From a plasmid, in the sequence record NZ_CP102531.1: a stretch of DNA of 64,000 nucleotides; one strand, 5' to 3'. This document shows, piece by piece, positions 1,184 through 59,594 of the stretch. The notes under the pieces were generated by a model, which did not search any database, was not told the origin of the DNA, and saw only the letters and a list, made by a program, of their open reading frames with translations. Each line of letters starts with the position of its first letter. The first letter of the stretch is position 1. Position numbers and translations under genes: made by a program.

Positions 1184-1221
1184 CCACGCATAAGAAGAGG
1201 CCAAATAGGAGGCTGAAACAA

Positions 1222-3013: not shown

Positions 3014-3212
3014 GCGGGTCTGCGAGCTTTTTGGCTTAACGTTAGTCGGCCAAGGCCGAGGAGCGTGGGCGTCTGCCCCGCCCACGCGCTCCAGGCAACG
3101 TACTACGTCGTCTCATATAGCCAATCAAGTTTCTGTTAGGTAACGGACGAGGGAAACCACCTCGTCTTGTTACGTCGAGACAAGGGACGCCAAAAAGCTC
3201 GCAGACCCGGTA
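3014..3212. repeat. highly structured element: 20-bp perfect inverted repeat (gggtctgcgagctttttggc / gccaaaaagctcgcagaccc) flanking about 155 bp containing three further GC-rich hairpins
   Basis: Read directly from the sequence; lies immediately 3' of the last tra gene (stop at 3221). Confidence 0.4.
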
Positions 3213-3220
3213 ATAGAAAA

Positions 3221-4612: not shown

Positions 4613-4656
4613 CTCGGTTAACTCCTTTCTGCATCAAAAAAGGACGCCTAGGCGTC

Positions 4657-7237: not shown

Positions 7238-7329
7238 ATGTTTCCCTCCATTGTTATTTTTAGTGAACTTAAGGCTGACGTTGCACTTGAACCAAACTCG
7301 TTGTCACGAATTTCAAGATTTTGCTTTTT

Positions 7330-7470
7330 TGAAGTTTTTCTACTGTCGCGAGATTTGCAAGTGGACGTCCACTTGCGATAAATTGACTCATTATCAGCTT
7401 CGCTGATAGTCAATTTTGTTTTGGGGGCACGCCCCCAATCCCCCGTTATTTTGAAGGGGTCTGCGACACC
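7330..7470. promoter_or_regulatory. candidate oriT / relaxosome binding region upstream of mobC
   Basis: 20-bp perfect palindrome gcaagtggacgtccacttgc (7357-7376); inverted repeat ttgactcattatcagc/gctgatagtcaa (7383-7413); GC palindrome gggggcacgccccc (7423-7436). Confidence 0.4.
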
Positions 7471-7478
7471 CTCCAAAA

Positions 7479-7754
7479 TCAAAGTTCAAACCCTTCTAAG
7501 CTCTCATTTTGGCTCAGCCATTTCTGATAATCTTCGACCGAAAGGTCGCTTAATTTTCGGATCGTTTCGTCGTAACATTCGAGGGTAAATTCTTTCTCAA
7601 TTGGATCTGTGATACCCGTCAGGTCATTAGCAATATCATCACGTACTGCTTTAACCTTTTGTAGAATTGCCGGCGGTGTATCTTCGCTCACAGACTTGCG
7701 GTGAAGTAAGATAATGTCACGATCGAATTCGTTCATTTCGTCAATGGTTTTCAT
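7479..7754 (-). CDS. hypothetical protein (91 aa) within the tra operon
   Basis: ORF track; no motif recognised. Confidence 0.4.
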   Translation of the reverse strand: MKTIDEMNEFDRDIILLHRKSVSEDTPPAILQKVKAVRDDIANDLTGITDPIEKEFTLECYDETIRKLSDLSVEDYQKWLSQNESLEGFEL

Positions 7755-7841
7755 GTTGGTAATTCCTTTCTTGGGTGATCAAGGGCTGGAGAAAAGCAAG
7801 GGCTGGAGTGTCCTCTTGAGTCAGAGTATTCAACAAATGGG

Positions 7842-8825
7842 TTAGCGTGTTTTCTCCTGCGTTGCTTGCACCAGCCCTTGCTCTTTTTTTGCGATGTTTT
7901 CCGTTGTCGCAATGGTTTTAGCGCGTTCTATTTTTTGATCAAGCGTCAACGGTTTCTCACGAATCTTTTCGAGGTTTTGATCGACGGTTTTATTGAACTT
8001 TTCGGCGGTGGATTGGATACGCGTTAAGCTTTTGGAGAGCTGGGAAAGATCCTTATCTTTCGACCAAACAGCAAGGTAAGGGAACGTATAATCACTCGTG
8101 TCAATTCCCAGATGTTGGCAAACGATAAACGCGGTACTTTCAGCTTCCAATTCCATGGTTGAACGATCCAATTTTAACTTCGGATCACAGTGTAATTCAC
8201 TGTGCGCGAGTTCATGAATCAGCGTCTTAATGGTTTGCTTCTCGCTCATACCGGAACGCAATTGGATTTCTTTTTTGAGTGGGCGAGTAACACCCTTGGT
8301 TTCGCTGCTCGGCATCTCATGGCTAAAGCCCACATGAAAGTCAGTTGCTTGAACAAGTTTGCTATAAATAGTGGCATAATTTGGTACTTCACCAGTCAGC
8401 TCATGTGTGAACATTTTGATAGGCTCACCACTGGTCTGAGAGTAATCAAACACAGCTGCAGGTCGGCAGAATACTTTGCTCTCTTTTACGCGTTTAATGG
8501 TGCCATCAGGTTGCCGAACTCTCTTTTCGTACTTGTGTTCACCACCCGCCAATATCCTGATACCTTTTTCGTGTTGATTAACTTGTCGATGGTACTGATT
8601 TTTCCATGTGTGATACCCCGCAACAAAAGTGGCATGTGGGTTCTGTAAATAGATGAGTAACTGGTTTCTGACACTGTATTGATGAAACCCGCTGATGAAC
8701 TTTAAATACTCTCGATACTCGTCAGTAGAGAAGACCTTTTTGGCGCCATCTTGCGCCAACGCCAGTAACTCTTTGGTACTCTTTGGTGGTTGCTTTTCTT
8801 GGCTTGATGTTGGCATCTTTATCAC
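7842..8825 (-). CDS. ardC: ArdC-like antirestriction protein (N-terminal ssDNA-binding domain plus zincin-like metalloprotease), 327 aa
   Basis: N-terminal YLKFISGFHQYSVRNQLLIYLQ pattern (DUF1738/ArdC-N); C-terminal HELAHSELH HEXXH zinc motif. Confidence 0.7.
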   Translation of the reverse strand: MIKMPTSSQEKQPPKSTKELLALAQDGAKKVFSTDEYREYLKFISGFHQYSVRNQLLIYLQNPHATFVAGYHTWKNQYHRQVNQHEKGIRILAGGEHKYEKRVRQPDGTIKRVKESKVFCRPAAVFDYSQTSGEPIKMFTHELTGEVPNYATIYSKLVQATDFHVGFSHEMPSSETKGVTRPLKKEIQLRSGMSEKQTIKTLIHELAHSELHCDPKLKLDRSTMELEAESTAFIVCQHLGIDTSDYTFPYLAVWSKDKDLSQLSKSLTRIQSTAEKFNKTVDQNLEKIREKPLTLDQKIERAKTIATTENIAKKEQGLVQATQEKTR

Positions 8826-19527: not shown

Positions 19528-21075
19528 TTAGACCGTTTCACTGACTGTTACGGTCAAATTTTGCGTTGTTGTTTGGCCGAATTTATCCGTCACGGTATAA
19601 GTCAGCACATAGCTGCCAGGTTTACTGGTATCAACCGAACCTTCGACATCAACAGTGACATCGCCATAAGAACTGGTAGCCGTAACACTAGCCTTTGGAT
19701 CAAAGTGATCGCCAACTTTGAGTTTTGTCGGTACTTTAGACAGATCAAGGGTTGGCTTGTCAGCCACAACGTTGATAGTTACTTCCTTGACGGTCTTCTG
19801 TCCAAACTTGTCAGTGGCTGTATAAGCAAGCTCATAGCTACCAGGCTTGCTGGTGTCAACTGATCCATCTACAGCCACAATCACATCGCCATAAGGACTA
19901 ACCGCTGTGACATTGGCCTTCGGGTTAAACTGGTCTCCCACCTTGAGTTCCGTTGGAACCTTCGACACATCAAGTGTCGGTGCCGTGGCAAACACCGTAA
20001 CCGAACGTTTCAGCGTTGTCACAGCACCATTCTTATCAGTGACGGTATAAATTAGTTCGTAATCACCAAGTTTGCTGGTATCAACGTCTCCTGCAACCTT
20101 GATTTCCGTTGTGAGGTCACCATCTTGATAATCATCAGCCGTAACACCTTGTAACGGATCAAAGGCATGACCAACCTCAGTTTGATTGTTCCCCGAGACA
20201 TGAATAACGGGAGCGTCATTAGTCACGACAACATCACGCGTAGCACTCGTTTTGTGCCCTGCGCTGTCTGTCACTTGGTAGGTCACTTGATAAGTCCCCT
20301 CCGTGTTAACGTCCACAGTGCTGCATAACACAACCTTGTTGGTCAAATCACCATCTTTTACATCATGAGCACTTACACCGTCCATTAAATTGAAGGATTT
20401 TTGACCTAAATGCAGATGCAGGTCATCAGCAAAGGATATGGTCGGGGCTTGGTCAACTGGTGCTGGTGTTGGATTCGGATCTGGCGTTGGGTTTGGCTCT
20501 GGTGTTGGCGTTGGATTCGGATCTGGCGTCGGGTTTGGCTCTGGTATTGGTTCCGGCGCTGGATTTGGTGTTGAACTAGGTTCCACCGATGGCGTCGTCT
20601 TGGTATCAGTCGTCTGTTTATCTGTTAACGGTTTAGGTTCAGGCGTTGTTCCTGTATTGTCTGCCGCTTTTGGCGTGTTCTGTTCCGCTGTTGCCTGATC
20701 TGCCAACGAAATAAGGCTTTGACTATTACTCGACTCAAGCTGTTTGCTCAAATCATTTTTACTGAAAGGAAAGGCGACTACTGTTTGATCACTTTTATCG
20801 CTATTCGGCAGATCCGGAGCCAGGGCATCTTTTATGGTCTGATCGGCTTTGTTAGAGGAAGGCTTTGTGTTCTTCTGTTTTTGCTCGACCTTTTTTGACG
20901 GCGTCCGCCATTGCTTAGATGGAGTGCTACTTTTCTTGACTGATTGCGAAGCGGGGGCAGCGTTTAACTGATAAGCCGTATAGCCGCCGCCTCCCAAGAC
21001 AATCGCACTTATCAGCAAGATTGCTGCTGTTTTCTTTTTGTTGTTTGCCATGAATGAATCCTCCTTTTTCCGCAT
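19528..21075 (-). CDS. secreted surface protein with Pro-rich PxPxP linker and three to four Ig-like repeats, 515 aa, no LPXTG
   Basis: Signal peptide MANNKKKTAAILLISAIVLGGGG; PEPIPEPNPTPDPNPTPTPEPNPTPDPNPTPAP linker; repeated units of about 80 aa (...DGD..T..V....D....G.Y...Y.V.D..G...). Confidence 0.6.
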   Translation of the reverse strand: MRKKEDSFMANNKKKTAAILLISAIVLGGGGYTAYQLNAAPASQSVKKSSTPSKQWRTPSKKVEQKQKNTKPSSNKADQTIKDALAPDLPNSDKSDQTVVAFPFSKNDLSKQLESSNSQSLISLADQATAEQNTPKAADNTGTTPEPKPLTDKQTTDTKTTPSVEPSSTPNPAPEPIPEPNPTPDPNPTPTPEPNPTPDPNPTPAPVDQAPTISFADDLHLHLGQKSFNLMDGVSAHDVKDGDLTNKVVLCSTVDVNTEGTYQVTYQVTDSAGHKTSATRDVVVTNDAPVIHVSGNNQTEVGHAFDPLQGVTADDYQDGDLTTEIKVAGDVDTSKLGDYELIYTVTDKNGAVTTLKRSVTVFATAPTLDVSKVPTELKVGDQFNPKANVTAVSPYGDVIVAVDGSVDTSKPGSYELAYTATDKFGQKTVKEVTINVVADKPTLDLSKVPTKLKVGDHFDPKASVTATSSYGDVTVDVEGSVDTSKPGSYVLTYTVTDKFGQTTTQNLTVTVSETV

Positions 21076-22215: not shown

Positions 22216-23033
22216 GGTTCTGGTGCAAATTTTCCTCGCTGACTTGATTTTAGTATACTGGGTGCCAAGAAACGAGGGATTGCGCGCATGAATCACTTTA
22301 AGGGACGCCACTTTCAAAAGGACATCATCTTAGTAGCCGTTGGCTACTATTTCAGATTCAGTCTCAGCTATCGTGACATCGTTGAATTGCTTCGGGATCG
22401 GGGTATCACTGTTCATCACACCACGGTCATGCGTTGGGTTCATCACTATGGCCCCATCTTTAAGGCTCTATGGCGTCGGCATCAAACAGCTCACGCTAAA
22501 AGTTGGCGAATCGATGAGACCTATATTCGAGTTAAAGGCCGTTGGGCCTATTTGTATCGCGCTATTGACAGTAACGGTTTGACCATGGATTTTGAGCTAC
22601 GAAAACACCGCGATTATACCGCATCCTATCACTTTTTGAAGCGTCTCTTGACGACCAATGGTCGGCCTGATCGATTAGTCACTGATCAATATCGGGCAAC
22701 ACTGAAAGCAGTGAAGCACCTGATAAAGCAAGACTATTTGAGCAAATCAGCCCACCAATGTTCCAAATATCGAAATAATTTGATTGAACAGGACCACCGA
22801 TTCATTAAACGTCATCGTGTCCGCTCAGCAAGCTTTCAAAGCATTCGAACCGCTAGTGCAACGTTGAGCGGTGTGGAAATTGTTCACGCAATACGCAAAA
22901 GAACCCGACGAGAGTTAAGTCTCATCGGGTTCTCAGTCGTGGACGAATTAGAAGCATTGTTAGCTGCTTAACCTTTAACATAGTATCAATAGCTGGGTAG
23001 ATGTCCATCTCTTAGACTGTTTGCACCAGATCC
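22216..23033 (+). mobile_element. IS6-family insertion sequence, copy 2
   Basis: Same terminal inverted repeats and protein-identical transposase as copy 1; inverted relative to copies 1 and 3. Confidence 0.85.
22288..22971 (+). CDS. tnp: IS6-family transposase (227 aa)
   Basis: Protein-identical to the 1691-2374 product. Confidence 0.9.
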   Translation: MNHFKGRHFQKDIILVAVGYYFRFSLSYRDIVELLRDRGITVHHTTVMRWVHHYGPIFKALWRRHQTAHAKSWRIDETYIRVKGRWAYLYRAIDSNGLTMDFELRKHRDYTASYHFLKRLLTTNGRPDRLVTDQYRATLKAVKHLIKQDYLSKSAHQCSKYRNNLIEQDHRFIKRHRVRSASFQSIRTASATLSGVEIVHAIRKRTRRELSLIGFSVVDELEALLAA

Positions 23034-26929: not shown

Positions 26930-27747
26930 GGATCTGGTGCAAACAGTCTAAGAGATGGACATCTACCCAGCTATTGATACTATGTTAAAGGTTAAGCAGC
27001 TAACAATGCTTCTAATTCGTCCACGACTGAGAACCCGATGAGACTTAACTCTCGTCGGGTTCTTTTGCGTATTGCGTGAACAATTTCCACACCGCTCAAC
27101 GTTGCACTAGCGGTTCGAATGCTTTGAAAGCTTGCTGAGCGGACACGATGACGTTTAATGAATCGGTGGTCCTGTTCAATCAAATTATTTCGATATTTGG
27201 AACATTGGTGGGCTGATTTGCTCAAATAGTCTTGCTTTATCAGGTGCTTCACTGCTTTCAGTGTTGCCCGATATTGATCAGTGACTAATCGATCAGGCCG
27301 ACCATTGGTCGTCAAGAGACGCTTCAAAAAGTGATAGGATGCGGTATAATCGCGGTGTTTTCGTAGCTCAAAATCCATGGTCAAACCGTTACTGTCAATA
27401 GCGCGATACAAATAGGCCCAACGGCCTTTAACTCGAATATAGGTCTCATCGATTCGCCAACTTTTAGCGTGAGCTGTTTGATGCCGACGCCATAGAGCCT
27501 TAAAGATGGGGCCATAGTGATGAACCCAACGCATGACCGTGGTGTGATGAACAGTGATACCCCGATCCCGAAGCAATTCAACGATGTCACGATAGCTGAG
27601 ACTGAATCTGAAATAGTAGCCAACGGCTACTAAGATGATGTCCTTTTGAAAGTGGCGTCCCTTAAAGTGATTCATGCGCGCAATCCCTCGTTTCTTGGCA
27701 CCCAGTATACTAAAATCAAGTCAGCGAGGAAAATTTGCACCAGAACC
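26930..27747 (-). mobile_element. IS6-family insertion sequence, copy 3
   Basis: Identical to copies 1 and 2; same orientation as copy 1. Confidence 0.85.
26992..27675 (-). CDS. tnp: IS6-family transposase (227 aa)
   Basis: Protein-identical to the other two copies. Confidence 0.9.
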   Translation of the reverse strand: MNHFKGRHFQKDIILVAVGYYFRFSLSYRDIVELLRDRGITVHHTTVMRWVHHYGPIFKALWRRHQTAHAKSWRIDETYIRVKGRWAYLYRAIDSNGLTMDFELRKHRDYTASYHFLKRLLTTNGRPDRLVTDQYRATLKAVKHLIKQDYLSKSAHQCSKYRNNLIEQDHRFIKRHRVRSASFQSIRTASATLSGVEIVHAIRKRTRRELSLIGFSVVDELEALLAA

Positions 27748-29030: not shown

Positions 29031-29501
29031 CTAGTATCTTTTAAGAACTATCTTCAGGAAGGCCAATACAACCATTTGAAGACTGCTGTTAAGGGCGCGT
29101 TCACAGTTTTTCCAAAGTCGCCGACATTTCTCTAGCCAACTCCATGAACGTTCAATGATCCATCGTTGCGGTAACACCGTGAACATATGCAACTCGTTGC
29201 GTTTAGCTACCGTCGTCTTAGCATTCAAAATGAGCTTCACCTGATCCGCAAAGTCATTGCCAGTGTAGCCACCATCAACCATGACATGCTGAACCAGCTC
29301 TAAATTTTGGCTAGCCAAACTAAACATAGCCAATGCACCTGAACGATCTAATACATTAGCTCGTATCACGAGAATGGCTTGTGGTAAACCGTTAATATCA
29401 ACCGCCATATGACGCTTAATCCCTGAAATCTTTTTGGCGCCATCGTAGCCACTATTTTTCGTTAAATCAGTGGTTTTAACACTTTGAGCATCAACAATCA
29501 C
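29031..29501 (-). CDS. IS5-family transposase OrfB (DDE domain, 156 aa)
   Basis: [21 protein letters not shown]... typical IS5/IS427 catalytic part. Confidence 0.8.
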
Positions 29502-29818
29502 AAACGACGTTCGGGCCGATCGGCCCTGTGCAAAGCGATAGGAAGCAACAGTTTTTTTAAAAGCCTTTCTAATAGCGAATCAGCTGTCGGGTCTGGTTTA
29601 TCTCGCCACATATCGTAATAGCGGTAGACAGTGTGCCATTCCGGGAAATCGTGCGGTAATTCACGCCATTGACACCCTGTAGTAAGCGAGTAAAGAATGG
29701 CATTGAATACGTCATAAAGATCATAACGACGCGGTCTTGTATGCTTGCGGAAGTTTTCTAAATCAGGTTGTATTAACGCAAATTGCGCTCGAGAAATATT
29801 GCTTGGATAATCTGGCAT
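29498..29818 (-). CDS. IS5-family transposase OrfA (106 aa)
   Basis: [25 protein letters not shown]... conserved across three copies. Confidence 0.8.
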
Positions 29819-48329: not shown

Positions 48330-48660
48330 TTAGGCAACATTCCGGCTACCTGAAACGTGAATTTGATAGTGAATTAAGATGGATTCCTGCTTATATTTTA
48401 CAAAAATCAAAATTGATCCATTAAAAAGCCTTAATAGCATCTTTAGGTTGGCTAGATTGATCGCAATATCAATCGTCACTGCGATGCTGGCTACCGTTTT
48501 AGTCCGCACCAATGAAAGGCCCAAAGGGCCTTTCATGAAGGCAAAACCGCGTTCAATTTTCCCGCGCCGCTTCTCTGCGTCACGATCAACTTGCCGCTGC
48601 TTAGCATCCATCTTTTTAGACTTACGTCCTAAACGTGGTCCCGACAACCTAATGCCTAGT
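48330..48660 (-). pseudogene. C-terminal remnant of a DDE transposase (IS1182/IS5-like) fused in-frame to the truncated 3' end of the IS3 OrfB
   Basis: ...KRRGKIERGFAFMKGPLGLSLVRTKTVASIAVTIDIAINLANLKMLL resembles transposase C-termini; it continues an IS3 OrfB tail (MESFHASLKKECVY...RIHSSLGY). Confidence 0.4.
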
Positions 48661-49830
48661 CGTTGACAGTGGTAGCCCAGTGAACTATGAATTCTCTTCC
48701 TATTGTAGAAAGCATGCACATATTCAAAAAGGACGGCAGCGGCAGTTTCATAATCTTCAAAGACCGGCACTGGATAAACACATTCCTTTTTGAGGGAAGC
48801 GTGAAAGGATTCCATTGGCGCATTATCATACGGACAACCCTTACGGCTGTATGAGTGCGGATATGTAGTTCAGTTAAACGTTGATTGTAATTATCGCTGG
48901 TATACTGTGATCCTAAATCCGTATGGATAATCAGGTCCCCAGTAATGGTTCGATTTTTAACCGCGCTTTCAAGGGTCTTTAAGACTAAATCAGTAGCCAT
49001 CTTTTTTGAGAACGAATAGCCGATAATCCGTCGTGAGTGCAGGTCCATGATGGTTGATAAGTAACACCAGCCATTACGCTTCGTTTGAATATAGGTCATA
49101 TCAGCGGTCCATTTTTGATTTAAACCAGTGGTCGAGAAATCCTGCTTAAGCAAGTTGGGACGCTGTTCAACCTTGGTTTTGGAAGCCGAAGCCGCTTTCC
49201 ACTTATTGACGGTACCGGAGTGGATATCCAGTTCCTTCATGAGCCGGGAAATCCGTCGTGGACTGCACCGAAGCTGCAGTGGTTGAAGTTCCAGATTCAA
49301 TTCATGGTGGCTCTTCATAACACCGTATCGCTGCTTAAATTCCGCAAAGATCCGCAGAATCAGTTGTTTCAAGTCCGCATCTTCGGCCCGTCGTTTTCAA
49401 GGTTTGGGGGATCGATAACGATAATACTGAGCTCTGGAAACACCGAGGATTCGGCACATCTTGGTTACCTGGTGGTGATGGCTTTCTTGGTGAATGTAAT
49501 CAAAGATATTGGTTACTTCTGCGCAAGGAAGTGCAGGGCTTTTTTTAGGATTTCGTTCTCCTCAGACAGCGAAGCCAGTCGCTTTTCCATCGCTTTTATT
49601 CCGTCTGGCGATTTACCGGATTGATTTTTGGCCTGGCCCTGGATCCACTTATGAACTGTTGAATAGCCAATGCCATATTCTCTGGCTAGTTGGGCAGCTG
49701 ATTCGCCTTGCTTATATAGGTTGATAATGTTTTGTTTGAATTCTTTGTCGTAACGAGTTGGCATGTAAAAATTCCTTCCTTTTGAGAGACGATTTATTCA
49801 TTATACCCTCTCTTAAAAGTTGTCTCAGGA
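48660..49830 (-). mobile_element. degenerate IS3-family element (orfA 49513-49764 intact; orfB carries an in-frame TGA and a 1-nt frameshift; 3' end truncated)
   Basis: OrfA HTH protein; OrfB integrase core (HTDLGSQYTS...); the expected Ser codon in PSKRRAEDA is replaced by TGA; frame change after ...LTELHIR; boundaries approximate. Confidence 0.6.
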
Positions 49831-49971
49831 ATCAGCTTACATCCAGGAAGTACGTCGAATTCTTAAGAAACCCATAGTTTACTGTTAACGCCATTACTTC
49901 AAGCGTGTCGACTTTTGACACGCTTTTTTTATGCTATTGGATACAAATCATTCAATAAAAATGAAGTATCA

Positions 49972-50005
49972 AAAAAGACGGCTTCCACTATGGAAAGTCG
50001 TCTCC
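49972..50005 (-). terminator. terminator downstream of the giant adhesin gene
   Basis: gacgactttcc-atagtgg-aagccgtc hairpin followed by a U-run on the minus strand. Confidence 0.45.
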
Positions 50006-50088
50006 GATGAACCTGGTTTTCTAATAATCATTCATGTCGCATCGTCTCGCTACAAAAGTATTCAGTATCGAAATTTGTGACATATACC

Positions 50089-53000
50089 TTATTGACGTTC
50101 TCGTCTGTAAGGTTTGAAAAAGCTATAAACGAATAAGCCAAGAACCGAAAGTATCCCAATCAGTGTCATGCCAACGTTATTGACATCTCCTGTATTTGGC
50201 ATTTTTTGACCATTGCCGTGATTGTCATTGGTGTTTGGTGGTGTACTCTTCTTAAAGTTCTTCGCCACAACCACAGCCGATTCATTATTGAGTTGAAGCT
50301 TGACCGTAAACGATATTTTTTCGTTACTCAGTTTATAACCAGCTGGTGCTGCTGTTTCAACAAAGTAGTAGTCGCCTGGCTTCAAATCATTGACTTGGAT
50401 CTGGCCTTTAGCATCTGTCGTCAAACCGCTAGCGATCTTAGTGCCATTCTTCTTGTACAGATCGAACACTGCACCAGCAAGAGTTTTACCAGTATCGCCG
50501 TCTGTCTTGTTCAAAACAACTGAACCCGTCTTCTCGGCATTTGTTGCAGAAACGGTCGCAACTTTGGTTGTGGTTTGTAATTCAACCGTGAAGTTCAGCT
50601 TACTATCATTTAGTTCATAGCCAGCTGGCGCTGCTGTTTCGACAAAGTAGTAGTCGCCTGGCTTCAAATCATTGACCTTGATTTGACCCTTAGCATCTGT
50701 CGTTAAACCGCTAGCGATCTTAGTGCCATTCTTCTTATACAGATCAAATACTGCACCAGCAAGAGTTTTACCAGTATCACTATCCGTCTTGTTCAAAACA
50801 ACTGAACCCGTCTTCTCGGCATTTGTTGCAGAAACGGTCGCAACCTTGGTTGTGGTTTGTAACTCGACCGTGAAGTTCAGCTTACTATCATTTAGTTCAT
50901 AGCCAGCTGGTGCTGCTGTTTCGACAAAGTAGTAGTCGCCTGGCTTCAAGTCATTGACCTGGATTTGACCCTTAGCATCTGTGGTCAAACCACTAGCAAG
51001 CTTTGTGCCGTCCTTCTTATACAGATCAAATACTGCACCAGCAAGAGTTTTACCAGTATCACTATCCGTCTTGTTCAAGACAACTGAGCCAGTCTTCTCA
51101 GCATTTGTTGCAGAAACGGTCGCAACTTTGGCTGTGGTTTGTAATTCAACCGTGAAGTTCAGCTTACTGTCATTTAGTTCATAGCCAGCTGGCGCTGCTG
51201 TTTCGACAAAGTAGTAGTCGCTTGGCTTCAAATCATTGACCTTGATTTGACCCTTAGCATCTGTGGTCAAACCACTAGCAACCTTAGTCCCATCCTTCTT
51301 ATACAGATCAAATACTGCACCAGCAAGAGTTTTACCAGTATCACTATCCGTCTTGTTCAAGACAACTGAGCCAGTCTTCTCAGCATTTGTTGCAGAAACG
51401 GTCGCAACTTTGGCTGTGGTTTGTAATTCAACCGTGAAGTTCAGCTTACTGTCATTTAGTTCATAGCCAGCTGGCGCTGCTGTTTCGACAAAGTAGTAGT
51501 CGCCTGGCTTCAAATCATTGACCTTGATTTGACCCTTAGCATCTGTCATCAAACCGCTAGCGATCTTAGTACCGTCCTTCTTATAAAGATCGAACACGGC
51601 ACCGGAAAGAGCTTTACCAGTATCACTATCCGTCTTGTTCAAAACAACTGAGCCAGTCTTCTCAGCATTTGTTGCAGAAACGGTCGCAACTTTGGCTGTG
51701 GTTTGTAATTCAACCGTGAAGTTCAGCTTACTGTCATTTAGTTCATAGCCAGCTGGCGCTGCTGTTTCGACAAAGTAGTAGTCGCCTGGCTTCAAATCAT
51801 TGACCTTGATTTGACCCTTAGCATCTGTCGTCAAACCGCTAGCGATCTTAGTACCGTCTTTCTTATAAAGATCGAATACTGCACCAGCAAGAGTTTTACC
51901 AGTATCGCCGTCGGTCTTGTTCAAAACAACTGAACCAGTCTTCTCAGCATTCGTTGCCGAGACGGTCGCAACCTTGGTTGTTTCCTGAAATTCAACCGTG
52001 AAGTTCAGCTTACTGTTGTTCAATTGATAACCAGCTGGCGCTGTTGTTTCGATAAAGTAGTAGTCACCTGGCTTCAAGTCATTGACCTTGATTTGACCCT
52101 TAGCATCTGTGGTCAAACCACTAGCAACCTTAGTCCCATCCTTCTTATACAGATCAAATACTGCACCAGAAAGAGTTTTACCAGTATCACTATCCGTCTT
52201 GTTCAAGACACCTGAGCCAGTCTTCTCAGCATTTGTTGCAGAAACGGTCGCAACTTTGGCTGTGGTTTGTAATTCAACCGTGAAGTTCAGCTTACTGTCA
52301 TTTAGTTCATAGCCAGCTGGCGCTGCTGTTTCGACAAAGTAGTAGTCGCCTGGCTTCAAGTCATTGACCTGGATTTGACCCTTAGCATCTGTGGTCAAAC
52401 CGCTAGCGATCTTAGTACCGTCTTTCTTATAAAGATCGAATACTGCACCAGCAAGAGTTTTACCAGTATCGCCGTCGGTCTTGTTCAAAACAACTGAACC
52501 AGTCTTCTCAGCATTCGTTGCCGAGACGGTCGCAACCTTGGTTGTTTCCTGAAATTCAACCGTGAAGTTCAGCTTACTGTTGTTCAATTGATAACCAGCT
52601 GGCGCTGTTGTTTCGATAAAGTAGTAGTCACCTGGCTTCAAGTCATTGACCTTGATTTGACCCTTAGCATCTGTGGTCAAACCACTAGCAACCTTAGTCC
52701 CATCCTTCTTATACAGATCAAATACTGCACCAGAAAGAGTTTTACCAGTATCACTATCCGTCTTGTTCAAGACAACTGAGCCAGTCTTCTCAGCATTTGT
52801 TGCAGAAACGGTCGCAACTTTGGCTGTGGTTTGTAATTCAACCGTGAAGTTCAATTTACTGTCGTTTAGTTCATAACCAGCTGGTGCTGCTGTTTCGACA
52901 AAGTAGTAGTCGCTTGGCTTCAAATCATTGACCTTGATTTGACCCTTAGCATCTGTGGTCAAACCACTAGCAACCTTAGTCCCATCCTTCTTATACAGAT

Positions 53001-56000
53001 CAAATACTGCACCAGCAAGAGTTTTACCAGTATCACTATCCGTCTTGTTCAAGACAACTGAGCCAGTCTTCTCAGCATTTGTTGCAGAAACGGTCGCAAC
53101 TTTGGCTGTGGTTTGTAATTCAACCGTGAAGTTCAGCTTACTGTCATTTAGTTCATAGCCAGCTGGCGCTGCTGTTTCGACAAAGTAGTAGTCGCCTGGC
53201 TTCAAATCATTGACCTTGATTTGACCCTTAGCATCTGTCATCAAACCGCTAGCGATCTTAGTACCGTCCTTCTTATAAAGATCGAACACGGCACCGGAAA
53301 GAGCTTTACCAGTATCACTATCCGTCTTGTTCAAAACAACTGAGCCAGTCTTCTCAGCATTTGTTGCAGAAACGGTCGCAACTTTGGCTGTGGTTTGTAA
53401 TTCAACCGTGAAGTTCAGCTTACTGTCATTTAGTTCATAGCCAGCTGGCGCTGCTGTTTCGACAAAGTAGTAGTCGCCTGGCTTCAAATCATTGACCTTG
53501 ATTTGACCCTTAGCATCTGTCATCAAACCGCTAGCGATCTTAGTACCGTCCTTCTTATAAAGATCGAACACGGCACCGGAAAGAGCTTTACCAGTATCAC
53601 TATCCGTCTTGTTCAAAACAACTGAGCCAGTCTTCTCAGCATTTGTTGCAGAAACGGTCGCAACTTTGGCTGTGGTTTGTAATTCAACCGTGAAGTTCAG
53701 CTTACTGTCATTTAGTTCATAGCCAGCTGGCGCTGCTGTTTCGACAAAGTAGTAGTCGCCTGGCTTCAAATCATTGACCTTGATTTGACCCTTAGCATCT
53801 GTCGTCAAACCGCTAGCGATCTTAGTACCGTCTTTCTTATAAAGATCGAATACTGCACCAGCAAGAGTTTTACCAGTATCGCCGTCGGTCTTGTTCAAAA
53901 CAACTGAACCAGTCTTCTCAGCATTCGTTGCCGAGACGGTCGCAACCTTGGTTGTTTCCTGAAATTCAACCGTGAAGTTCAGCTTACTGTTGTTCAATTG
54001 ATAACCAGCTGGCGCTGTTGTTTCGATAAAGTAGTAGTCACCTGGCTTCAAGTCATTGACCTTGATTTGACCTTTAGCATCTGTCGTCAAACCACTAGCA
54101 AGCTTTGTGCCGTCCTTCTTATACAGATCGAACACGGCACCGGAAAGAACTTTACCAGTATCACCATCTGTCTTTGTTAGAAGAACGCTCCCTAATGCTT
54201 TATCATTTGTGACTGGAACTTTTAATTGAATACTATCGCTATTAATTGTAAAGGCATGCTGAATATCATCTAGCTTATATCCATCAGGTGCCTTTGTTTC
54301 GATAATATAATAGTCTCCAGCATTAAGACCGGTATAACTTACAGTGCCATCTAATCCCGTCTTAAGATTCGAAGCAACCTTAGTCCCGTCTTTCTTATAA
54401 AGATCAAATATTGCTCCAGCTAAAGGACTTGAGTTATCAGCATCAGACTTTTCAATCGTGACCTTACCTTTTTGATTAGTGGCAGAAACCAAGACATTAT
54501 TATCAGCATTTGCTTCTTTATACTGAAGATTGATTTCTTTTCCATTTGTCAAACTGGTAGAAATCACATAGCCATCTGGGGCCTTTGTTTCAACTAAAAT
54601 GTATTTTCCAGATTTAAGATTATTCCATGTGATACTGCCTGCAGCATCCGTTGTCCCTGTACGAAGCTTCTGCCCTTTTTGTCCGGAAACATCCGACCAA
54701 AGTTCAAAAGAAGCTCCAGCAATTGACTTTTTGGTGTCAGCATCACTCTTGGTAAGAACGATATTGGTGTTCTTACCCGTTGCCGATCCGTAGTTGTTTA
54801 CTACTTGTGTCGATCCGTTGGTATTGTTATCAACATCCTTTTCGCCCTTGCCTGATATCGATGCTGTGTTTGTCAACGTATCATTAATTTTTGACGAATT
54901 GATCAGTGAACGATAATGAATCGAGTAAGCCGAACTAATTTCCTTTGCAAAGGAAATCTTCATCGTTTGCTTACCAGTTACATTATCAGTTTGCAGATCC
55001 ACAGAGTAATCCTTACCAAGTACTAATGGATTACTCGTATCTTCAGTAAAGTCACCATTAGCAGCGACCTTCCCTGGATAGATCACAATAGAGCTTTCGC
55101 CAATAATTTGATTGTCAGAAGGCTCATCGGTAACAACTGCATCGCTGAAAGTTGACTGTGCTTTATTGACCCATATCGTCCACAATGCATAAGCAGAGTT
55201 CGTTGGGTCTTGTTTGCCACTTTTATCCAGAACATTGCCACTGTATGGCACTGTCACCTTAGCCGTCAAATCACTAGATTTTTTGTTATTTGTATAGGTC
55301 GCTGTATTGTCATACGACTTTTGATCAATGACCTTACCAGAGAGACTAGTTTGGTAAGTCAAGACATAAGCCTTAGAACTATCATTTGGTAATTTAGCAG
55401 TAAGCTGTTTCTTAGTACTGTCAAAGGAAATATTAGCGGAAGCAACTTGTGTTCCCAAAATATATGAGCCATTTGTGTTAATAGAAGCTTCATACAACTT
55501 GGCGCTACCTGCTACATAGTCTTGGTCACCAATAATTGGATCAGTAATAGAGGCATTGCTAAGTTTACGTTGATTATAGTTAGCAACCACGGTCCAAGTA
55601 ATTTGTTTAGAAACAGCATTATAACTCCCCGACTTGCTGCCATCATTTTTAAACTCAGTCTTAGGGGTGAAGTCTGCCTGTCCCTTATTTGTATGATCTT
55701 GGCCGTCTTTATCAGTCCAAGTTGCCGTAGCAGTGTTAGTCCACTTACCCCCATTCGGAAGGCTATTCGTTTCAAAGTCAGTTTTATAACTCAGAGTATA
55801 CCAACTTGTAGCATGCTTTTTTAAAGCATTAGCGAAGGATATGGTAAAACCGTTCCCTTGCTTGCTAATCACATAGTCCGTTCCTTCAGTGAGGGTTGTA
55901 TTATGATCTTTATCTTTCAGAACAAAGGAATCATAATCTACAGTCAGCCCATCCGGGACTGGATCGGTCATTGACCAATTGCTCATATTTTGGCGGGCCA

Positions 56001-57954
56001 TATTGATATCAAAGTTCCATGTAACAGTCTTAGCATTATAGTCAACGCTACCGAGGGACTTAGTTAGTCCCTGCTGTCCGACTGAATTATTTTCAGAATT
56101 AGAGGTTTGGCCGTTGCTATCTACCCTGTTACTAATCTTTTGGCCTTTATCACCAATTGGGTCTGTTACTTGTGACTGATATGAAATTTTGACTCCCTTG
56201 TTCAGCCCATTGGGGAAAACAATAGTCATTTCAGTTCTATCAACATTGTAAGTTACTTTATAGTCATCAGTACTGATAGGCGTACCAGCCTCATCAACTA
56301 ATGAAAGCTTATTGTCCTCCGGGAATGTTTGGCCCGTTGATAACGTATCTACCAACTTAGTATTGGCAGAAAGTGTCTTTTCGCCATAATTGTAATAAAT
56401 ATGCCAATTATACTTTTGACTACCATTCTTATCCTGACCGTCAAAACTCTTGTTTAAAAGTTTCCCGTAGTTAGCCTTTACTGTCGCACTAGCTGGAGAG
56501 TCTTTATCACCGTTAGTTAAGGTAGCATTGTTCGTAAAGGTTAAGATTCCGCCATTATCTGGTAATTTACTCGAATCGATGTCGCTAGTGTATGCAATCT
56601 TAAAAGCCTGATAGGTATCTGCATATGCACCAACAAATGTGATTTTTCCATTTTCAACCTTGTAATCCGTACCTTCTTTAAGGGGATCGCCAGTTTTAGT
56701 CACATTCCCCTTCAGATTAACTGTCAAGGGATATACACTAACCGATTTCAGCGTGGTCGGCACAGTGTTGGTAGTATCACTTGGCATTGGATCAGAAATT
56801 GTTGCATTCTTTAGCTCTTTACCATTGGTATTAATTGTGACGTTCCACGTAATCCCTGTTGGGTTATTTCCAGATGTGTTAGCCCCGGTTAGTTGGCCAG
56901 TTTTAGCAATATCATTGCCACCTGATGGATGGACAACAATCGGTATTTCAACAGGACCGCTTGTCTTATCAATTTTAATTGTATCTTTGCCAGATGATGA
57001 ATCACTACTAATAGTAGCGGTGTACCCAAATGTTCCTTCAATATTGTTCACACTTTCAACATTGCTATTAAAGATGAACTTAACTGTGCCATCAGCAGCT
57101 ATGCTATAAGTTCCATAGTCATCAAGAGTTCCCGTACCTGGTTTATAGGTAATTCCTTCGGGTAACTTAAATGAGAAATAGTCACCATCTTTAAGCTGAT
57201 ACCCATCTTTCATATCATTCGGAATTGCCCACGTATATTGAAAATTAAGATTGGTATCTTTTGTCACTTGTGTGCGATCAACAGTATGACCATCGCTATC
57301 TGTGAATTCAATCTTTGCTCCAGTAATGATTGTCCCTTTGGAGTCATCTGGCAAATACTTTGAAATATCATTGCCCTCAGTACTCTTAGAAACTGCCTTT
57401 TCACCTTGGCTTGTCGCCGTAACACTAGGCGCAGCTTTGCTGCTAGCATTGGTCGAAGGCTTATCAGCTTTTGTTTTCTCAATAGAATCAGTCAGCTTTG
57501 CAACAACATTTTGACTATCCGTCGAAAAATTGACAGATCCTTCTAAGGATGAAGCCTCCGTGAGACTTAGTTGGATAGTTGCTGTGCCAGAAACATTACC
57601 TAAAACCTCTAACTCTAATTTGTTGGCCGAATAGGTATATTTCCCGACAACTTTTTGATTGGCATCAAGAATATTAGAATTGCTCGTATCTTTCAGTTGC
57701 TGATTGTTAGAAACAGATACTGAAACTTCCTTATGAATACTTTCATCTGTTGAATTATTTAATGAAAGCTTCAGGTCAATGTTCCGTGATCCAGCAGCTT
57801 CTTGAGTTGCCCCTAGAAGTTGAACCTCTGTCGAATGATCGGCCGCACTGGGGCTAGATGTAACGGCTCCTACAACTTGAGCTGATGATTGTAAGAACAG
57901 CAAAAAAATCAGAACCAAAGAATATATTTGCTGTCCTATTTTCTTCTTGTTCAT
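50089..57954 (-). CDS. giant cell-wall-anchored adhesin (2621 aa) with about 15 tandem Cna-B/SpaA-type 94-aa repeats and an MPNTG sorting signal
   Basis: Signal peptide; long Thr/Ser-rich N-terminal region; tandem repeats GSVVLNKTD.DTGK.L.GAVFDLYKKDGTK.ASGLTTDAKGQIKVNDLKPGDYYFVETAAPAGYELN; C-terminus QKMPNTGD + hydrophobic helix + KPYRRERQ. Confidence 0.85.
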   Translation of the reverse strand: MNKKKIGQQIYSLVLIFLLFLQSSAQVVGAVTSSPSAADHSTEVQLLGATQEAAGSRNIDLKLSLNNSTDESIHKEVSVSVSNNQQLKDTSNSNILDANQKVVGKYTYSANKLELEVLGNVSGTATIQLSLTEASSLEGSVNFSTDSQNVVAKLTDSIEKTKADKPSTNASSKAAPSVTATSQGEKAVSKSTEGNDISKYLPDDSKGTIITGAKIEFTDSDGHTVDRTQVTKDTNLNFQYTWAIPNDMKDGYQLKDGDYFSFKLPEGITYKPGTGTLDDYGTYSIAADGTVKFIFNSNVESVNNIEGTFGYTATISSDSSSGKDTIKIDKTSGPVEIPIVVHPSGGNDIAKTGQLTGANTSGNNPTGITWNVTINTNGKELKNATISDPMPSDTTNTVPTTLKSVSVYPLTVNLKGNVTKTGDPLKEGTDYKVENGKITFVGAYADTYQAFKIAYTSDIDSSKLPDNGGILTFTNNATLTNGDKDSPASATVKANYGKLLNKSFDGQDKNGSQKYNWHIYYNYGEKTLSANTKLVDTLSTGQTFPEDNKLSLVDEAGTPISTDDYKVTYNVDRTEMTIVFPNGLNKGVKISYQSQVTDPIGDKGQKISNRVDSNGQTSNSENNSVGQQGLTKSLGSVDYNAKTVTWNFDINMARQNMSNWSMTDPVPDGLTVDYDSFVLKDKDHNTTLTEGTDYVISKQGNGFTISFANALKKHATSWYTLSYKTDFETNSLPNGGKWTNTATATWTDKDGQDHTNKGQADFTPKTEFKNDGSKSGSYNAVSKQITWTVVANYNQRKLSNASITDPIIGDQDYVAGSAKLYEASINTNGSYILGTQVASANISFDSTKKQLTAKLPNDSSKAYVLTYQTSLSGKVIDQKSYDNTATYTNNKKSSDLTAKVTVPYSGNVLDKSGKQDPTNSAYALWTIWVNKAQSTFSDAVVTDEPSDNQIIGESSIVIYPGKVAANGDFTEDTSNPLVLGKDYSVDLQTDNVTGKQTMKISFAKEISSAYSIHYRSLINSSKINDTLTNTASISGKGEKDVDNNTNGSTQVVNNYGSATGKNTNIVLTKSDADTKKSIAGASFELWSDVSGQKGQKLRTGTTDAAGSITWNNLKSGKYILVETKAPDGYVISTSLTNGKEINLQYKEANADNNVLVSATNQKGKVTIEKSDADNSSPLAGAIFDLYKKDGTKVASNLKTGLDGTVSYTGLNAGDYYIIETKAPDGYKLDDIQHAFTINSDSIQLKVPVTNDKALGSVLLTKTDGDTGKVLSGAVFDLYKKDGTKLASGLTTDAKGQIKVNDLKPGDYYFIETTAPAGYQLNNSKLNFTVEFQETTKVATVSATNAEKTGSVVLNKTDGDTGKTLAGAVFDLYKKDGTKIASGLTTDAKGQIKVNDLKPGDYYFVETAAPAGYELNDSKLNFTVELQTTAKVATVSATNAEKTGSVVLNKTDSDTGKALSGAVFDLYKKDGTKIASGLMTDAKGQIKVNDLKPGDYYFVETAAPAGYELNDSKLNFTVELQTTAKVATVSATNAEKTGSVVLNKTDSDTGKALSGAVFDLYKKDGTKIASGLMTDAKGQIKVNDLKPGDYYFVETAAPAGYELNDSKLNFTVELQTTAKVATVSATNAEKTGSVVLNKTDSDTGKTLAGAVFDLYKKDGTKVASGLTTDAKGQIKVNDLKPSDYYFVETAAPAGYELNDSKLNFTVELQTTAKVATVSATNAEKTGSVVLNKTDSDTGKTLSGAVFDLYKKDGTKVASGLTTDAKGQIKVNDLKPGDYYFIETTAPAGYQLNNSKLNFTVEFQETTKVATVSATNAEKTGSVVLNKTDGDTGKTLAGAVFDLYKKDGTKIASGLTTDAKGQIQVNDLKPGDYYFVETAAPAGYELNDSKLNFTVELQTTAKVATVSATNAEKTGSGVLNKTDSDTGKTLSGAVFDLYKKDGTKVASGLTTDAKGQIKVNDLKPGDYYFIETTAPAGYQLNNSKLNFTVEFQETTKVATVSATNAEKTGSVVLNKTDGDTGKTLAGAVFDLYKKDGTKIASGLTTDAKGQIKVNDLKPGDYYFVETAAPAGYELNDSKLNFTVELQTTAKVATVSATNAEKTGSVVLNKTDSDTGKALSGAVFDLYKKDGTKIASGLMTDAKGQIKVNDLKPGDYYFVETAAPAGYELNDSKLNFTVELQTTAKVATVSATNAEKTGSVVLNKTDSDTGKTLAGAVFDLYKKDGTKVASGLTTDAKGQIKVNDLKPSDYYFVETAAPAGYELNDSKLNFTVELQTTAKVATVSATNAEKTGSVVLNKTDSDTGKTLAGAVFDLYKKDGTKLASGLTTDAKGQIQVNDLKPGDYYFVETAAPAGYELNDSKLNFTVELQTTTKVATVSATNAEKTGSVVLNKTDSDTGKTLAGAVFDLYKKNGTKIASGLTTDAKGQIKVNDLKPGDYYFVETAAPAGYELNDSKLNFTVELQTTTKVATVSATNAEKTGSVVLNKTDGDTGKTLAGAVFDLYKKNGTKIASGLTTDAKGQIQVNDLKPGDYYFVETAAPAGYKLSNEKISFTVKLQLNNESAVVVAKNFKKSTPPNTNDNHGNGQKMPNTGDVNNVGMTLIGILSVLGLFVYSFFKPYRRERQ
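50300..54500. repeat. about 15 near-identical 282-bp tandem DNA repeats inside the adhesin gene
   Basis: Repeated blocks visible directly in the sequence (e.g. ...gtcgcaactttggctgtggtttgtaattcaaccgtgaagttcagcttact... recurring every 282 bp); boundaries approximate. Confidence 0.8.
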
Positions 57955-58404
57955 AGTTTACCTCTATTTCGAAATAGTCAATTTTTATTTTTTGAACCCA
58001 ATTTTAACAAATAAAGTTTGCCCCTCTCCTTTCTAAAAAAACATATATATGTATCCTATAAGTCGTGGATTCAGTCACAACTCGAAAGATTTAAGCTATA
58101 GGTTACACATGTTAAATATACAACAATTTTGCTTATACTAATAGTTATTATCGGGTCTAGAATTTTTGGTGTTGGAAAGTATTTCCATTCCAAAAGTACT
58201 AGGCCCTTTTTGATAACAAAAAAAGGCATCTAAGCCTCCCTAGTGCTATGATTTAAGCGGGGTAGGAATAGATGTCTCAACTAGATAATACACTTAAATT
58301 ACTGCCTCAATTTTCAAGTCAAGTGCAACGATGATAACGAATTCTTGATAGTGGTCTAGGCTGTTAGGGTCTGTACTAGAATTTCGGACAGAAACATAAG
58401 AGAA

Positions 58405-58713
58405 TTGATTTATCCGAAAGGAGTCCTCAAAATGACCTATTCACGCAATCGCTACGACCAAGATTTTAAGAAAAATGCGGTACATTTGAGTTTTAACTCT
58501 TCCAAACCAGTTAAAATCATTGCCTCCGAACTTGGTGTTCCTGAAAGTGCCCTGTATCGTTGGCGGAAGCTATATACCGAAGATGGAAAGCAAACACCGT
58601 TTGCTTCTTTAGAAGCTGAGAACCGTGCCTTAAAACGTGAAAATGCCGAATTAGCATTGGAGCGTGATATGTTAAAAAAAGCCGCCGCCTACTTTGCCAG
58701 TCTCCAGAAGTAA
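58405..58713 (+). CDS. IS3-family transposase OrfA (102 aa)
   Basis: HTH plus coiled-coil; ends just after the A7G slippery motif. Confidence 0.8.
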   Translation: MIYPKGVLKMTYSRNRYDQDFKKNAVHLSFNSSKPVKIIASELGVPESALYRWRKLYTEDGKQTPFASLEAENRALKRENAELALERDMLKKAAAYFASLQK

Positions 58714-58736
58714 CCCCCAGCGATAAGTATGCTTTT

Positions 58737-59594
58737 ATGTTGAGGGAAACCTCTGTTTCTGTGGTAAGGTGGGCGCGTTTGTTAGACGTATCAACGAGTG
58801 GTTATTATGCTTGGCGGAGAGCTTTGCCAAAGCGAAACGCCAAAGAAAGGCAATATCGTCAACGAATCAAACACTTTTTTGATCAAGGACAGGGCACTTA
58901 CGGGCCCAAACGCATCTGCGGTTTATTGCGTAAAAATGGTAATAAAGCTTCCTATCACCGAGTTGCCCGTCTGATGGCTGATGCCGGTCTGTATTCAACG
59001 CTACGTTGTCGTCATCCGAAGAGTTTGACCGATAGCCGCCTTGCTCGTCAAGGTGATTATCCCAATCTAGTGAAACACCAATCTTTTAAGCCGTTTGAAG
59101 CCTTATCAAGTGACATTACACAGACGACAACATCAGAAGGAAAAGCTTACATTTGCCAAATAAGGGATTTGAACAGCAACCTAGTGTTAGCTCATCAAAT
59201 ATCCAATCATATGGACACGGATTTAGTCTTAGCGACACTTAAACAAGCCCACCAAAGGTGGGCTTTGCCAGAAACGTGTATTTTTCATAGTGACCGTGGT
59301 AGCCAATACACGGCCAAAGAAGTGACAAAGTTGGTCAACCAATATCATTGGCAACGTAGCTTCTCAGCATTGGGAAAACCGGGTGATAACGCTTGGAGCG
59401 AAAGCTTCTTTGCCATCATGAAGAAAGAGCTCATTTATCAGATACAATTTAAAGATATCAATGAACTGAGAGCGCAAGTCTTCGCTTACATCGAGACCTT
59501 TTACAACCGCGTAAGGGTACAAGCACGCTTAGACTATCTTGCACCAGTAGCATGGCTTTCCTTGTATGACCAAGCTTCACAAAAAGTCGCTTAG
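58737..59594 (+). CDS. IS3-family transposase OrfB (285 aa, DDE integrase core)
   Basis: rve-domain motifs. Confidence 0.8.
   Translation: MLRETSVSVVRWARLLDVSTSGYYAWRRALPKRNAKERQYRQRIKHFFDQGQGTYGPKRICGLLRKNGNKASYHRVARLMADAGLYSTLRCRHPKSLTDSRLARQGDYPNLVKHQSFKPFEALSSDITQTTTSEGKAYICQIRDLNSNLVLAHQISNHMDTDLVLATLKQAHQRWALPETCIFHSDRGSQYTAKEVTKLVNQYHWQRSFSALGKPGDNAWSESFFAIMKKELIYQIQFKDINELRAQVFAYIETFYNRVRVQARLDYLAPVAWLSLYDQASQKVA

Follow-up and report, generated by a model that had tools for sequence, protein, structure and literature searches.

A very probable allele of the aggregation gene aggLb with a 14-unit CnaB repeat array and a conserved MPNTG sorting signal on a Lacticaseibacillus paracasei plasmid

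Introduction

The gene aggLb was cloned from plasmid pNJ1 of Lacticaseibacillus paracasei BGNJ1-64, where it is flanked by three transposase genes. Its product has 2998 amino acids (aa), with Thr and Lys contents of 12.5 and 10.2%. It contains six collagen-binding domains and 20 CnaB-like domains, with a run of 18 94-aa repeats that are almost identical beginning at aa 1255, and signal peptide cleavage is predicted to fall between aa 30 and 31 (Miljkovic et al., PLoS One 2015; PMC4425601). Here we analyzed a 64,000-nucleotide (nt) stretch of plasmid DNA (sequence record NZ_CP102531.1), hereafter the window, which holds an intact open reading frame (ORF) of 2621 codons plus a stop codon at positions 50089-57954 on the minus strand, with an ATG start. 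We conclude with high confidence that this gene is an allele of aggLb lying in a cassette bounded by insertion sequences (IS) on a pBD-II/pW56-type conjugative plasmid, and that it encodes an anchored aggregation adhesin with a CnaB stalk. The gene is not a new discovery; papers from 2015-2016 already describe it, along with its repeat architecture, plasmid location and function.

The function of the BGNJ1-64 allele has been established by experiment. Deletion of aggLb abolishes auto-aggregation, overexpression raises aggregation, hydrophobicity and collagen binding, and proteinase K abolishes the phenotype; when introduced by itself into Lactococcus lactis or Enterococcus faecalis, aggLb makes these hosts aggregate and bind collagen (PMC4425601). 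Aggregation and collagen/fibronectin binding are carried by the N-terminal domains and not by the repeats (PMC4425601, PMC5014864). A deletion series identified domains II-IV as critical and the CnaB domains past the first two as dispensable for aggregation, truncated forms moved the phenotype towards biofilm formation, and the authors read the CnaB repeats as an 'antenna' or stalk (PMC5014864).

The gene in the window is most readily compared with aggLb itself, with which it shares an N-terminal half that is approximately 98-99% identical, as judged via the W56, BD-II and LC2W genes. The two alleles differ in their number of near-identical units (18 in AggLb versus 14 here), CnaB domains (20 versus 16) and total length (2998 versus 2621 aa). 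They also differ in the higher-order repeat, which comprises 5 units (1196 bp exact) in AggLb and 7 units (737 bp exact) here. The anchor is given as 'LPXTG' in the AggLb papers and is MPNTG in every allele that we examined.

Next in likeness is AggL of L. lactis BGKP1 (plasmid pKP1; A0A143ZB70, 'Aggregation promoting factor'), to which AggE is related. AggL is homologous over the whole N-terminal region that precedes the CnaB domains (the A region), with 42% identity at 100% coverage (P0028; E 6e-234). AggL shares the signal peptide, the collagen-binding domains, the CnaB repeats, the sorting signal, the plasmid location and the aggregation phenotype but has 7 CnaB domains and an LPKTS anchor, and an AggL/AggLb hybrid was non-functional (PMC5014864). 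The microbial surface components recognizing adhesive matrix molecules (MSCRAMMs) of the Cna type, namely, Cna of Staphylococcus aureus, Cnm of Streptococcus mutans and Ace/Acm of enterococci, have in common a Collagen_bind A region, a CnaB stalk and a sortase signal. Where they have an N1-N2 pair, the protein described here has about six binding-type domains in tandem; its B repeats are also far more numerous, and its main phenotype is auto-aggregation.

Two further proteins resemble AggLb in part. PrgB of the conjugative plasmid pCF10 of E. faecalis is also a plasmid-encoded, wall-anchored aggregation protein with immunoglobulin (Ig)-like domains. The likeness is only that of strings of Ig-like domains, with template modeling (TM) scores of 0.2-0.3 and no sequence homology, and aggLb differs further in its location, an IS-bounded cassette that is approximately 29 kb away from the transfer genes, and in its occurrence on non-conjugative plasmids as well. 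CnbB, likened here by its description, is another surface protein of L. paracasei with CnaB repeats, and its anchor likewise begins with methionine, MPQTG (PMC3716772), but it is much smaller, at about 750 aa with 3-4 CnaB domains.

Results and discussion

Identification of the gene as aggLb

The first 4523 bp of aggLb are 99% identical to genes annotated as 'hypothetical protein' in strains W56, LC2W and BD-II, and these pBD-II/pW56/pLC2W genes and aggLb have identities of 99% (nt) and 98% (aa) (PMC4425601). We found the window to be 100% identical to the same genes over the 4201 bp queried, and the 5' 3.75 kb of its gene matched them at 100%. The 94-aa repeat consensus printed in the AggLb paper occurs exactly three times in the window protein, at aa 1443, 1537 and 2101. 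The repeat run starts where it does in AggLb (aa 1255 in the register of the paper, which counts the GS at aa 1255-1256), a large exact direct repeat begins at gene nucleotide 3883, as in aggLb, and the Thr and Lys contents are 12.2 and 10.2%. The full identity to records named in the paper, the exact consensus, the shared repeat starts and the matching composition therefore identify the gene as aggLb, and the assignment gains further support because both genes are plasmid-borne and transposase-flanked. Made through the records named in the paper and the printed consensus, the identification is indirect but tight. The exact 2621-aa protein is already public (UMO96225.1, UUY34847.1 and WP_240578199.1, on a 66,795-bp plasmid contig).

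Domain layout and structure of the repeat array

Translation and Pfam analysis confirmed the ORF, its CnaB/SpaA repeats and the MPNTG motif with its transmembrane segment and KPYRRERQ tail, all as given in an initial annotation made from the letters of the window; the view of the product as a surface adhesin whose stalk consists of CnaB/SpaA repeats was upheld by Pfam, the NCBIfam anchor model and sequence matches in the PDB. Pfam detected 16 SpaA (PF17802) stretches, 4 Collagen_bind matches and 1 Big_8 match (Table 1). The 16 CnaB/SpaA domains, consisting of the 14 units of the tandem array (U1 to U14) and two divergent domains (D1 and D2), span 4.5 kb. Antisense ORFs inside the repeats had been called artefacts, and this view was upheld: three antisense ORFs of at least 100 aa lie within the gene, with a Pfam match for none of them, and the array itself contains a single one, at 50206-50523.

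Table 1. Features of the aggLb allele and its flanks (positions in the window)
Feature	Position	Strand	Evidence
aggLb allele, complete coding sequence	50089..57954	-	ORF list, translation
Shine-Dalgarno-like AGAGG, 6 nt 5' of the ATG	57961..57965	-	Read from sequence
Signal peptide region, aa 1-30, MNKKKIGQQIYSLVLIFLLFLQSSAQVVGA	57865..57954	-	Sequence
A region, predicted string of Ig-like/collagen-binding domains, aa 31-1064	54763..57864	-	Pfam, AlphaFold2, Foldseek, published deletions
Divergent CnaB/SpaA domains D1 (aa 1065-1164) and D2 (aa 1165-1256)	54187..54762	-	Pfam, unit table
Tandem array U1-U14, aa 1257-2572, one CnaB/SpaA domain per 282-bp unit; predicted stalk	50239..54186	-	Tandem Repeats Finder, unit table, mismatch matrix
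Putative cell-wall sorting signal: MPNTG (50188-50202), hydrophobic segment, KPYRRERQ tail	50092..50202	-	Sequence, TIGR01167, PF00746
IS3-family element, 3' bound of the cassette; ORFs 49513-49764 and 48656-49372	48670..49845	-	Pfam HTH_Tnp_1, rve
ISL3/IS1165 end remnant, 5' of the gene	58146..58304		97-98% matches, hundreds of lactic acid bacteria plasmids
ISL1 (IS3 family) transposase ORFs, 5' of the gene	58405..59594	+	Prokaryotic Genome Annotation Pipeline (PGAP) in pBD-II; Pfam HTH_Tnp_1, rve

Tandem Repeats Finder reported one array, at 50330-54174, with a period of 282, 13.6 copies, 92% matches, 0 indels and a score of 6234. Set in register, the array consists of 14 units of 94 aa (282 bp) and measures 3948 bp. 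The initial annotation had counted about 15 repeats over 4.2 kb, a figure that we correct to 14 units in 3.95 kb plus the two divergent domains. A mismatch matrix showed that U2 is identical to U9 and that U3, U4 and U10 are identical to one another, with the closest unequal pairs being U6/U8 (1 nt apart), U2/U7 (3 nt) and U5/U11 (5 nt). Among the remaining pairs of U1-U13, up to 44 of the 282 nt are mismatched, and U14 is the most distinct, at 65-78 nt from every other unit. The earlier description of units differing by only a few nucleotides thus fits the identical pairs and those 1-5 nt apart but not the others; the array is a mosaic and not uniformly near-identical. Its longest exact internal repeat is 737 bp long at an offset of 1974 bp, equal to 7 units, which reveals a higher-order structure. 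Summed over the pairs of U1-U13, synonymous codon differences outnumber non-synonymous ones by 1003 to 509, approximately 2:1.

Repeat number differs between records in steps of whole units

We compared the array with those of other aggLb records (Table 2). The alleles of 1493, 1587, 1963, 2057, 2151 and 2621 aa differ from one another by multiples of 94 aa in every case, and the published 2998-aa AggLb exceeds the allele described here by 4 units plus 1 residue. The initial annotation had expected the repeat number to differ between strains, as is borne out by arrays of 2, 3, 7, 8, 9, 14 and 18 units across records. In-register recombination among the 14 units would yield alleles that differ by whole 94-aa units, and the same repeats would cause short-read assemblies to collapse or break.

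Table 2. Lengths and unit numbers of aggLb records
Protein length	Repeat units	Record
1493 aa	2	pACT
1587 aa	3	pBD-II, pLC2W, pW56
1963 aa	7	P0067
2057 aa	8	P0068, P0077
2151 aa	9	pMGB0625-1 (90% identical allele)
2621 aa	14	This window
N-terminally truncated	14, other internal order	pFAM18149.25
2998 aa	18	BGNJ1-64

The short arrays are in-register subsets of the window array. That of pW56 reads U1-U2-U14 and that of pACT is U1 followed directly by U14; pBD-II has a clean U1/U12 hybrid and then U13-U14, and pLC2W has a U1/U7-type hybrid and then U13-U14. Because three nearly identical plasmids share the length and differ in unit content, the 2-3-unit records of older assemblies are probably collapses rather than the products of three independent 11-unit deletions. 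Draft genomes also fragment on the array, giving many 'partial' proteins of 80-200 aa on contigs of 300-600 bp. The short in-register records and the fragmented drafts bear out the earlier warning that the array is prone to misassembly.

The same reasoning might be turned against the 14-unit count itself, and the true array could be shorter, longer or reordered. Short reads cannot resolve the 737-bp exact repeat or the identical units (U2 and U9; U3, U4 and U10), and public records of the near-identical plasmids pACT, pW56, pBD-II and pLC2W are in conflict, having 2 or 3 units that differ in composition. We nevertheless consider an artefactual count unlikely. The same 2621-aa protein stands under two GenBank accessions and a RefSeq WP accession, the independent plasmid pFAM18149.25 also has 14 units, complete alleles of 7, 8 and 9 units are known, and the 18 units of BGNJ1-64 were checked by hybridization against the native plasmid (PMC4425601). 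In addition, the array is fully in frame with no indels, and the errors found in databases go towards collapse and not towards expansion. We therefore retain the count of 14 units.

These observations mean that the reference plasmids of widely used strains (pBD-II, pLC2W, pW56 and pACT) list 2-3 units where arrays of 14-18 units exist. Given the short records and the PGAP name, which labels the product as pilin-related, claims on the size or presence of this adhesin are unreliable unless they come from long reads. As the BGNJ1-64 deletion data indicate that repeats past the first two CnaB domains have no effect on aggregation, the length polymorphism itself may matter little to the phenotype.

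Two of the records deserve separate mention. In pFAM18149.25, from a cheese isolate, the allele lies at 875-7935, homology begins at window position 57149 and aggLb lacks its initial ~800 bp at the 5' end; PGAP nonetheless calls a 6963-bp coding sequence there. A 162-aa partial protein (P0053) comes from a 488-bp contig labelled Campylobacter jejuni, and its 70 displayed C-terminal residues are identical to aggLb repeat units of the U6/U7 type; this record is most likely L. paracasei contamination of a C. jejuni assembly.

Predicted binding region and CnaB stalk

The initial annotation, which treated the protein as a repeat adhesin, missed that the gene was known and that its main demonstrated phenotype, auto-aggregation with collagen/fibronectin binding, resides in the N-terminal domains. 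By analogy with the 98-99% identical AggLb, for which these activities were shown experimentally, the allele in the window is predicted to mediate aggregation and to bind collagen and fibronectin.

An AlphaFold2 model of aa 345-760 (domains II-IV; window 55675-56922) comprised three beta-sandwich domains with a predicted local distance difference test (pLDDT) score of 92.3. When this model was searched with Foldseek, the best match was to the Ig-like domains of PrgB (8beg; E 7e-18, TM-score 0.2-0.3). Other matches were to antigen I/II C-domains, to SdrE, SdrG, ClfA, ClfB and Bbp, and to Cnm (8jl8) and Cna (2f6a), with E-values of 1e-9 to 1e-12 for SdrE, SdrG, ClfA, Cnm and Cna. The TM-scores of the matches were low (0.2-0.35, with 0.24-0.34 for the Cna N1N2 pair), as would be expected where the angles between domains differ. 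A sequence search of the PDB with the 1034-aa A region gave no match at E<=0.001. Judged by the Pfam matches, the model and its Foldseek matches, the A region is of the Ig-like (DEv-IgG type) ligand-binding class that characterizes Cna-type MSCRAMMs.

The match of domains II-IV to the PrgB fold also raises a possible role in mating aggregation. The adhesin may raise the transfer frequency of its conjugative plasmid, as PrgB and CluA do; we hold this to be improbable, and the estimate is a joint one with the proposal of a selected methionine made below.

The repeat unit matched solved CnaB domains in the PDB, with BcpA (3kpt; E 2e-20) the closest, followed by 8bdw and by FbaB CnaB2, the parent of SpyCatcher. 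As in Cna-type MSCRAMMs, these B repeats sit between the A region and the wall anchor. K31 and E77 of SpyCatcher align, respectively, with the first-strand Lys of the LNKTD motif and with the Glu of YYFVET, and the positions of the K/E/N triad are kept in 16/16 CnaB domains. These alignments suggest that each CnaB domain probably forms one intramolecular Lys-Asn isopeptide bond.

We also considered that the gene product might be a sortase-assembled pilus subunit. All records carry the PGAP name 'SpaA isopeptide-forming pilin-related protein', the NF033902 model of SpaH/EbpB major pilins scored 448.8 bits over 16 stretches, and BcpA, the closest solved match of the repeat, is a pilin. The NF033902 score, however, stems from 16 CnaB domains that each match one part of the model. 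No YPK motif occurs across the 2621 aa, and the 64-kb window contains neither a class C sortase gene nor partner pilin genes, the neighbours being IS elements. The size of 2621 aa with an MSCRAMM-type A region argues in the same direction, and the homologue works as a single-gene aggregation factor. We therefore rejected the pilus subunit, with neither a pilin motif nor a class C sortase in the window, as extremely improbable.

The anchored adhesin favored here would reach the cell surface as follows. The protein would be exported via its N-terminal signal peptide, and the C-terminal hydrophobic segment and charged tail would hold it at the membrane. A chromosomal housekeeping sortase would then cut within MPNTG and join the protein to peptidoglycan, and the 16 CnaB/SpaA domains would form a rigid stalk that pushes the binding region out from the wall.

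The MPNTG sorting signal

The C terminus reads ...GNGQK-MPNTG-DVNNVGMTLIGILSVLGLFVYSFF-KPYRRERQ, with MPNTG at aa 2585-2589 (codons ATG CCA AAT ACA GGA). The motif is followed by DVNN, the hydrophobic segment VGMTLIGILSVLGLFVYSFF and the KPYRRERQ tail. Leucine is absent from the first position of the pentapeptide, which is occupied by methionine. Sortase substrates vary at this position, so methionine is compatible with the sortase-dependent class. On the whole protein, TIGR01167 (LPXTG_anchor, NCBIfam) scored 19.8 against a cut-off of 15.9 and passed, and PF00746 (Gram_pos_anchor) scored 18.2, under its cut-off of 20. With the tail alone, both models passed (PF00746, 25.0 versus 20; TIGR01167, 25.4 versus 15.9). 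Recognition of this tripartite signal by curated models points to putative sortase-dependent anchoring of the protein in the cell wall.

We examined how widely the methionine is conserved. All complete plasmid alleles fetched, from six loci and with the 90%-identical one among them, have MPNTG, as do all complete members of the cluster. Orthologues at 79-91% identity have MPNTG or MPATG (Lacticaseibacillus nasuensis, L. yichunensis, L. porcinae, L. salsurivasis and Lapidilactobacillus luobeiensis), and a metagenomic relative has MPSTG. L. kribbianus has LPATG, though its tail is almost identical to that of L. luobeiensis (P0009 versus P0008). Methionine was found in 10/11 distinct orthologue tails from several species, whereas homologues at <=67% identity have LPxTG or LPKTS. 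Protein-database searches with the 63-aa tail and with the last 143 aa returned 2 and 19 mostly fragmentary proteins and three further M-first tails, and such word-indexed searches are too narrow for an estimate of the frequency of M-first anchors. As the methionine is conserved in divergent alleles and species, we rejected the idea that it stems from a sequencing error or a point mutation. The LPATG of an orthologue whose tail is nearly the same shows that leucine and methionine interchange, and from these alignments the methionine of MPNTG is seen as a conserved, tolerated variant of the whole clade.

The initial annotation had proposed that the unusual first residue indicates a dedicated sortase or reduced anchoring. 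According to this proposal, MPNTG would direct the protein to a dedicated or accessory sortase, or would weaken anchoring and lead to partial release or membrane retention. In favor of the proposal, methionine stands in place of the residue that is most conserved in the motif and is left unaligned by the curated models, and its conservation throughout the clade could mean selection. Substitution of M by L in silico raised the PF00746 and TIGR01167 scores by 6.3 and 3.8 bits, respectively, and this gain, together with the PF00746 score of the whole protein, could be taken to indicate weakened anchoring. However, the 64-kb window contained no sortase-like (TLxTC) ORF and no second ORF with a sorting signal, and the cassette occurs on several different backbones with no adjacent sortase there either. 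Four chromosomal sortases, SrtA1, SrtA2, SrtC1 and SrtC2, are known in the L. casei/paracasei group, with the genes reported for L. casei BL23 (PMC5360332; see also PMC3716772), and the 'MPQTG anchor' was tabulated by Smokvina et al. in 2013 for CnbB, the other collagen-binding protein of L. paracasei (PMC3716772). Finally, BGNJ1-64 aggLb alone gives proteinase-sensitive aggregation in L. lactis and E. faecalis, where no L. paracasei-specific sortase is at hand, and leucine takes the place of methionine in the orthologue with the nearly identical tail. The absence of a sortase gene from the window, the several backbones, the chromosomal sortases, the anchor of CnbB and the function in Lactococcus and Enterococcus make a dedicated sortase unlikely, and we rate the proposal as a whole as quite doubtful. 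Of the initial interpretation, therefore, the adhesin, its length variation, the misassembly and the antisense artefacts stood, and the speculation on sortases did not, since methionine is found clade-wide, the models pass, the window lacks a sortase gene and the protein functions in heterologous hosts.

A different significance of the methionine can be envisaged within anchoring by a housekeeping sortase. Several species of Lacticaseibacillus and Lapidilactobacillus in the AggLb clade retain the residue, whereas the x residue and the tail have drifted. The methionine may be selected, tuning the choice between SrtA1 and SrtA2 or the rate of the reaction, a proposal to which, jointly with that on plasmid transfer, we assign a low probability. 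In this way, a selected methionine may determine how much of this very large protein is wall-linked and how much is retained in the membrane or released.

Several points count against the assignment of the gene as an allele of aggLb encoding an anchored aggregation adhesin. Its identity with AggLb (HG008907.2) rests on intermediate records and the printed consensus, and the expression and aggregation data come from the BGNJ1-64 allele and not from this plasmid or strain. Near the gene there is no strong sigma-70 promoter consensus, the best upstream match being weak (9/12) and no better than those in shuffled sequences. Both anchor models leave the methionine outside the local alignment, at a cost of 4-6 bits. 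A full-text search found MPNTG spelled out in no paper of the library searched, with MPQTG of CnbB as the only related motif, and the AggLb papers rely for anchoring on a motif given simply as a predicted LPXTG (PMC4425601, PMC5014864). The 'LPXTG' of AggLb is actually MPNTG, a detail not addressed before.

Plasmid context and neighbouring elements

By its sequence, the window comes from a conjugative plasmid of L. paracasei that belongs to the pBD-II/pW56/pLC2W/pACT type. It is 99.9-100% identical to pBD-II, pW56, pLC2W and pACT (from the Actimel strain) over most of its length and encodes a MOBP relaxase, a VirD4-like coupling protein, a VirB4/TraG-like ATPase and a CHAP/M23 hydrolase. Further cargo includes a type I restriction-modification system, lactose and cysteine genes and many IS copies. 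The aggLb cassette is found between IS elements on several plasmid backbones; the segment in common with the unrelated backbone pMGB0625-1 is 49846-58150, with breaks at 49845/49846 and 58150. The IS flanks seen here resemble the three transposase genes around aggLb in pNJ1. The 160-bp ISL3/IS1165 remnant, located ~190-350 bp 5' of the aggLb start, could supply or disrupt a promoter.

Other repeated elements lie elsewhere in the window. An IS6-family transposase ORF of 227 aa is present in three copies (1691-2374, 22288-22971 and 26992-27675); one copy is on the plus strand and the other two are on the minus strand. A scan of the first copy matched DDE_Tnp_IS240, and with both orientations present the copies could mediate inversions or cointegrates within the plasmid. 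A two-ORF element (106 + 156 aa) of the IS4/IS5 type also has three copies (29031-29818, 38848-39635 and 45403-46190), which bracket the type I restriction-modification, lactose and cysteine regions; the one copy scanned matched DUF4096 and DDE_Tnp_1.

Two ORFs of ~825 aa, at 10801-13278 and 13268-15751 (both on the minus strand), were considered as adhesins and rejected, being a CHAP + M23 hydrolase (with a weak glucosaminidase match) and a VirB4/TraG-type ATPase. Within the conjugation cluster, the minus strand at 19528-21075 encodes a 515-aa protein with four Bact_surface_Ig-like domains and no C-terminal sorting signal, which may be a surface component of the mating pair.

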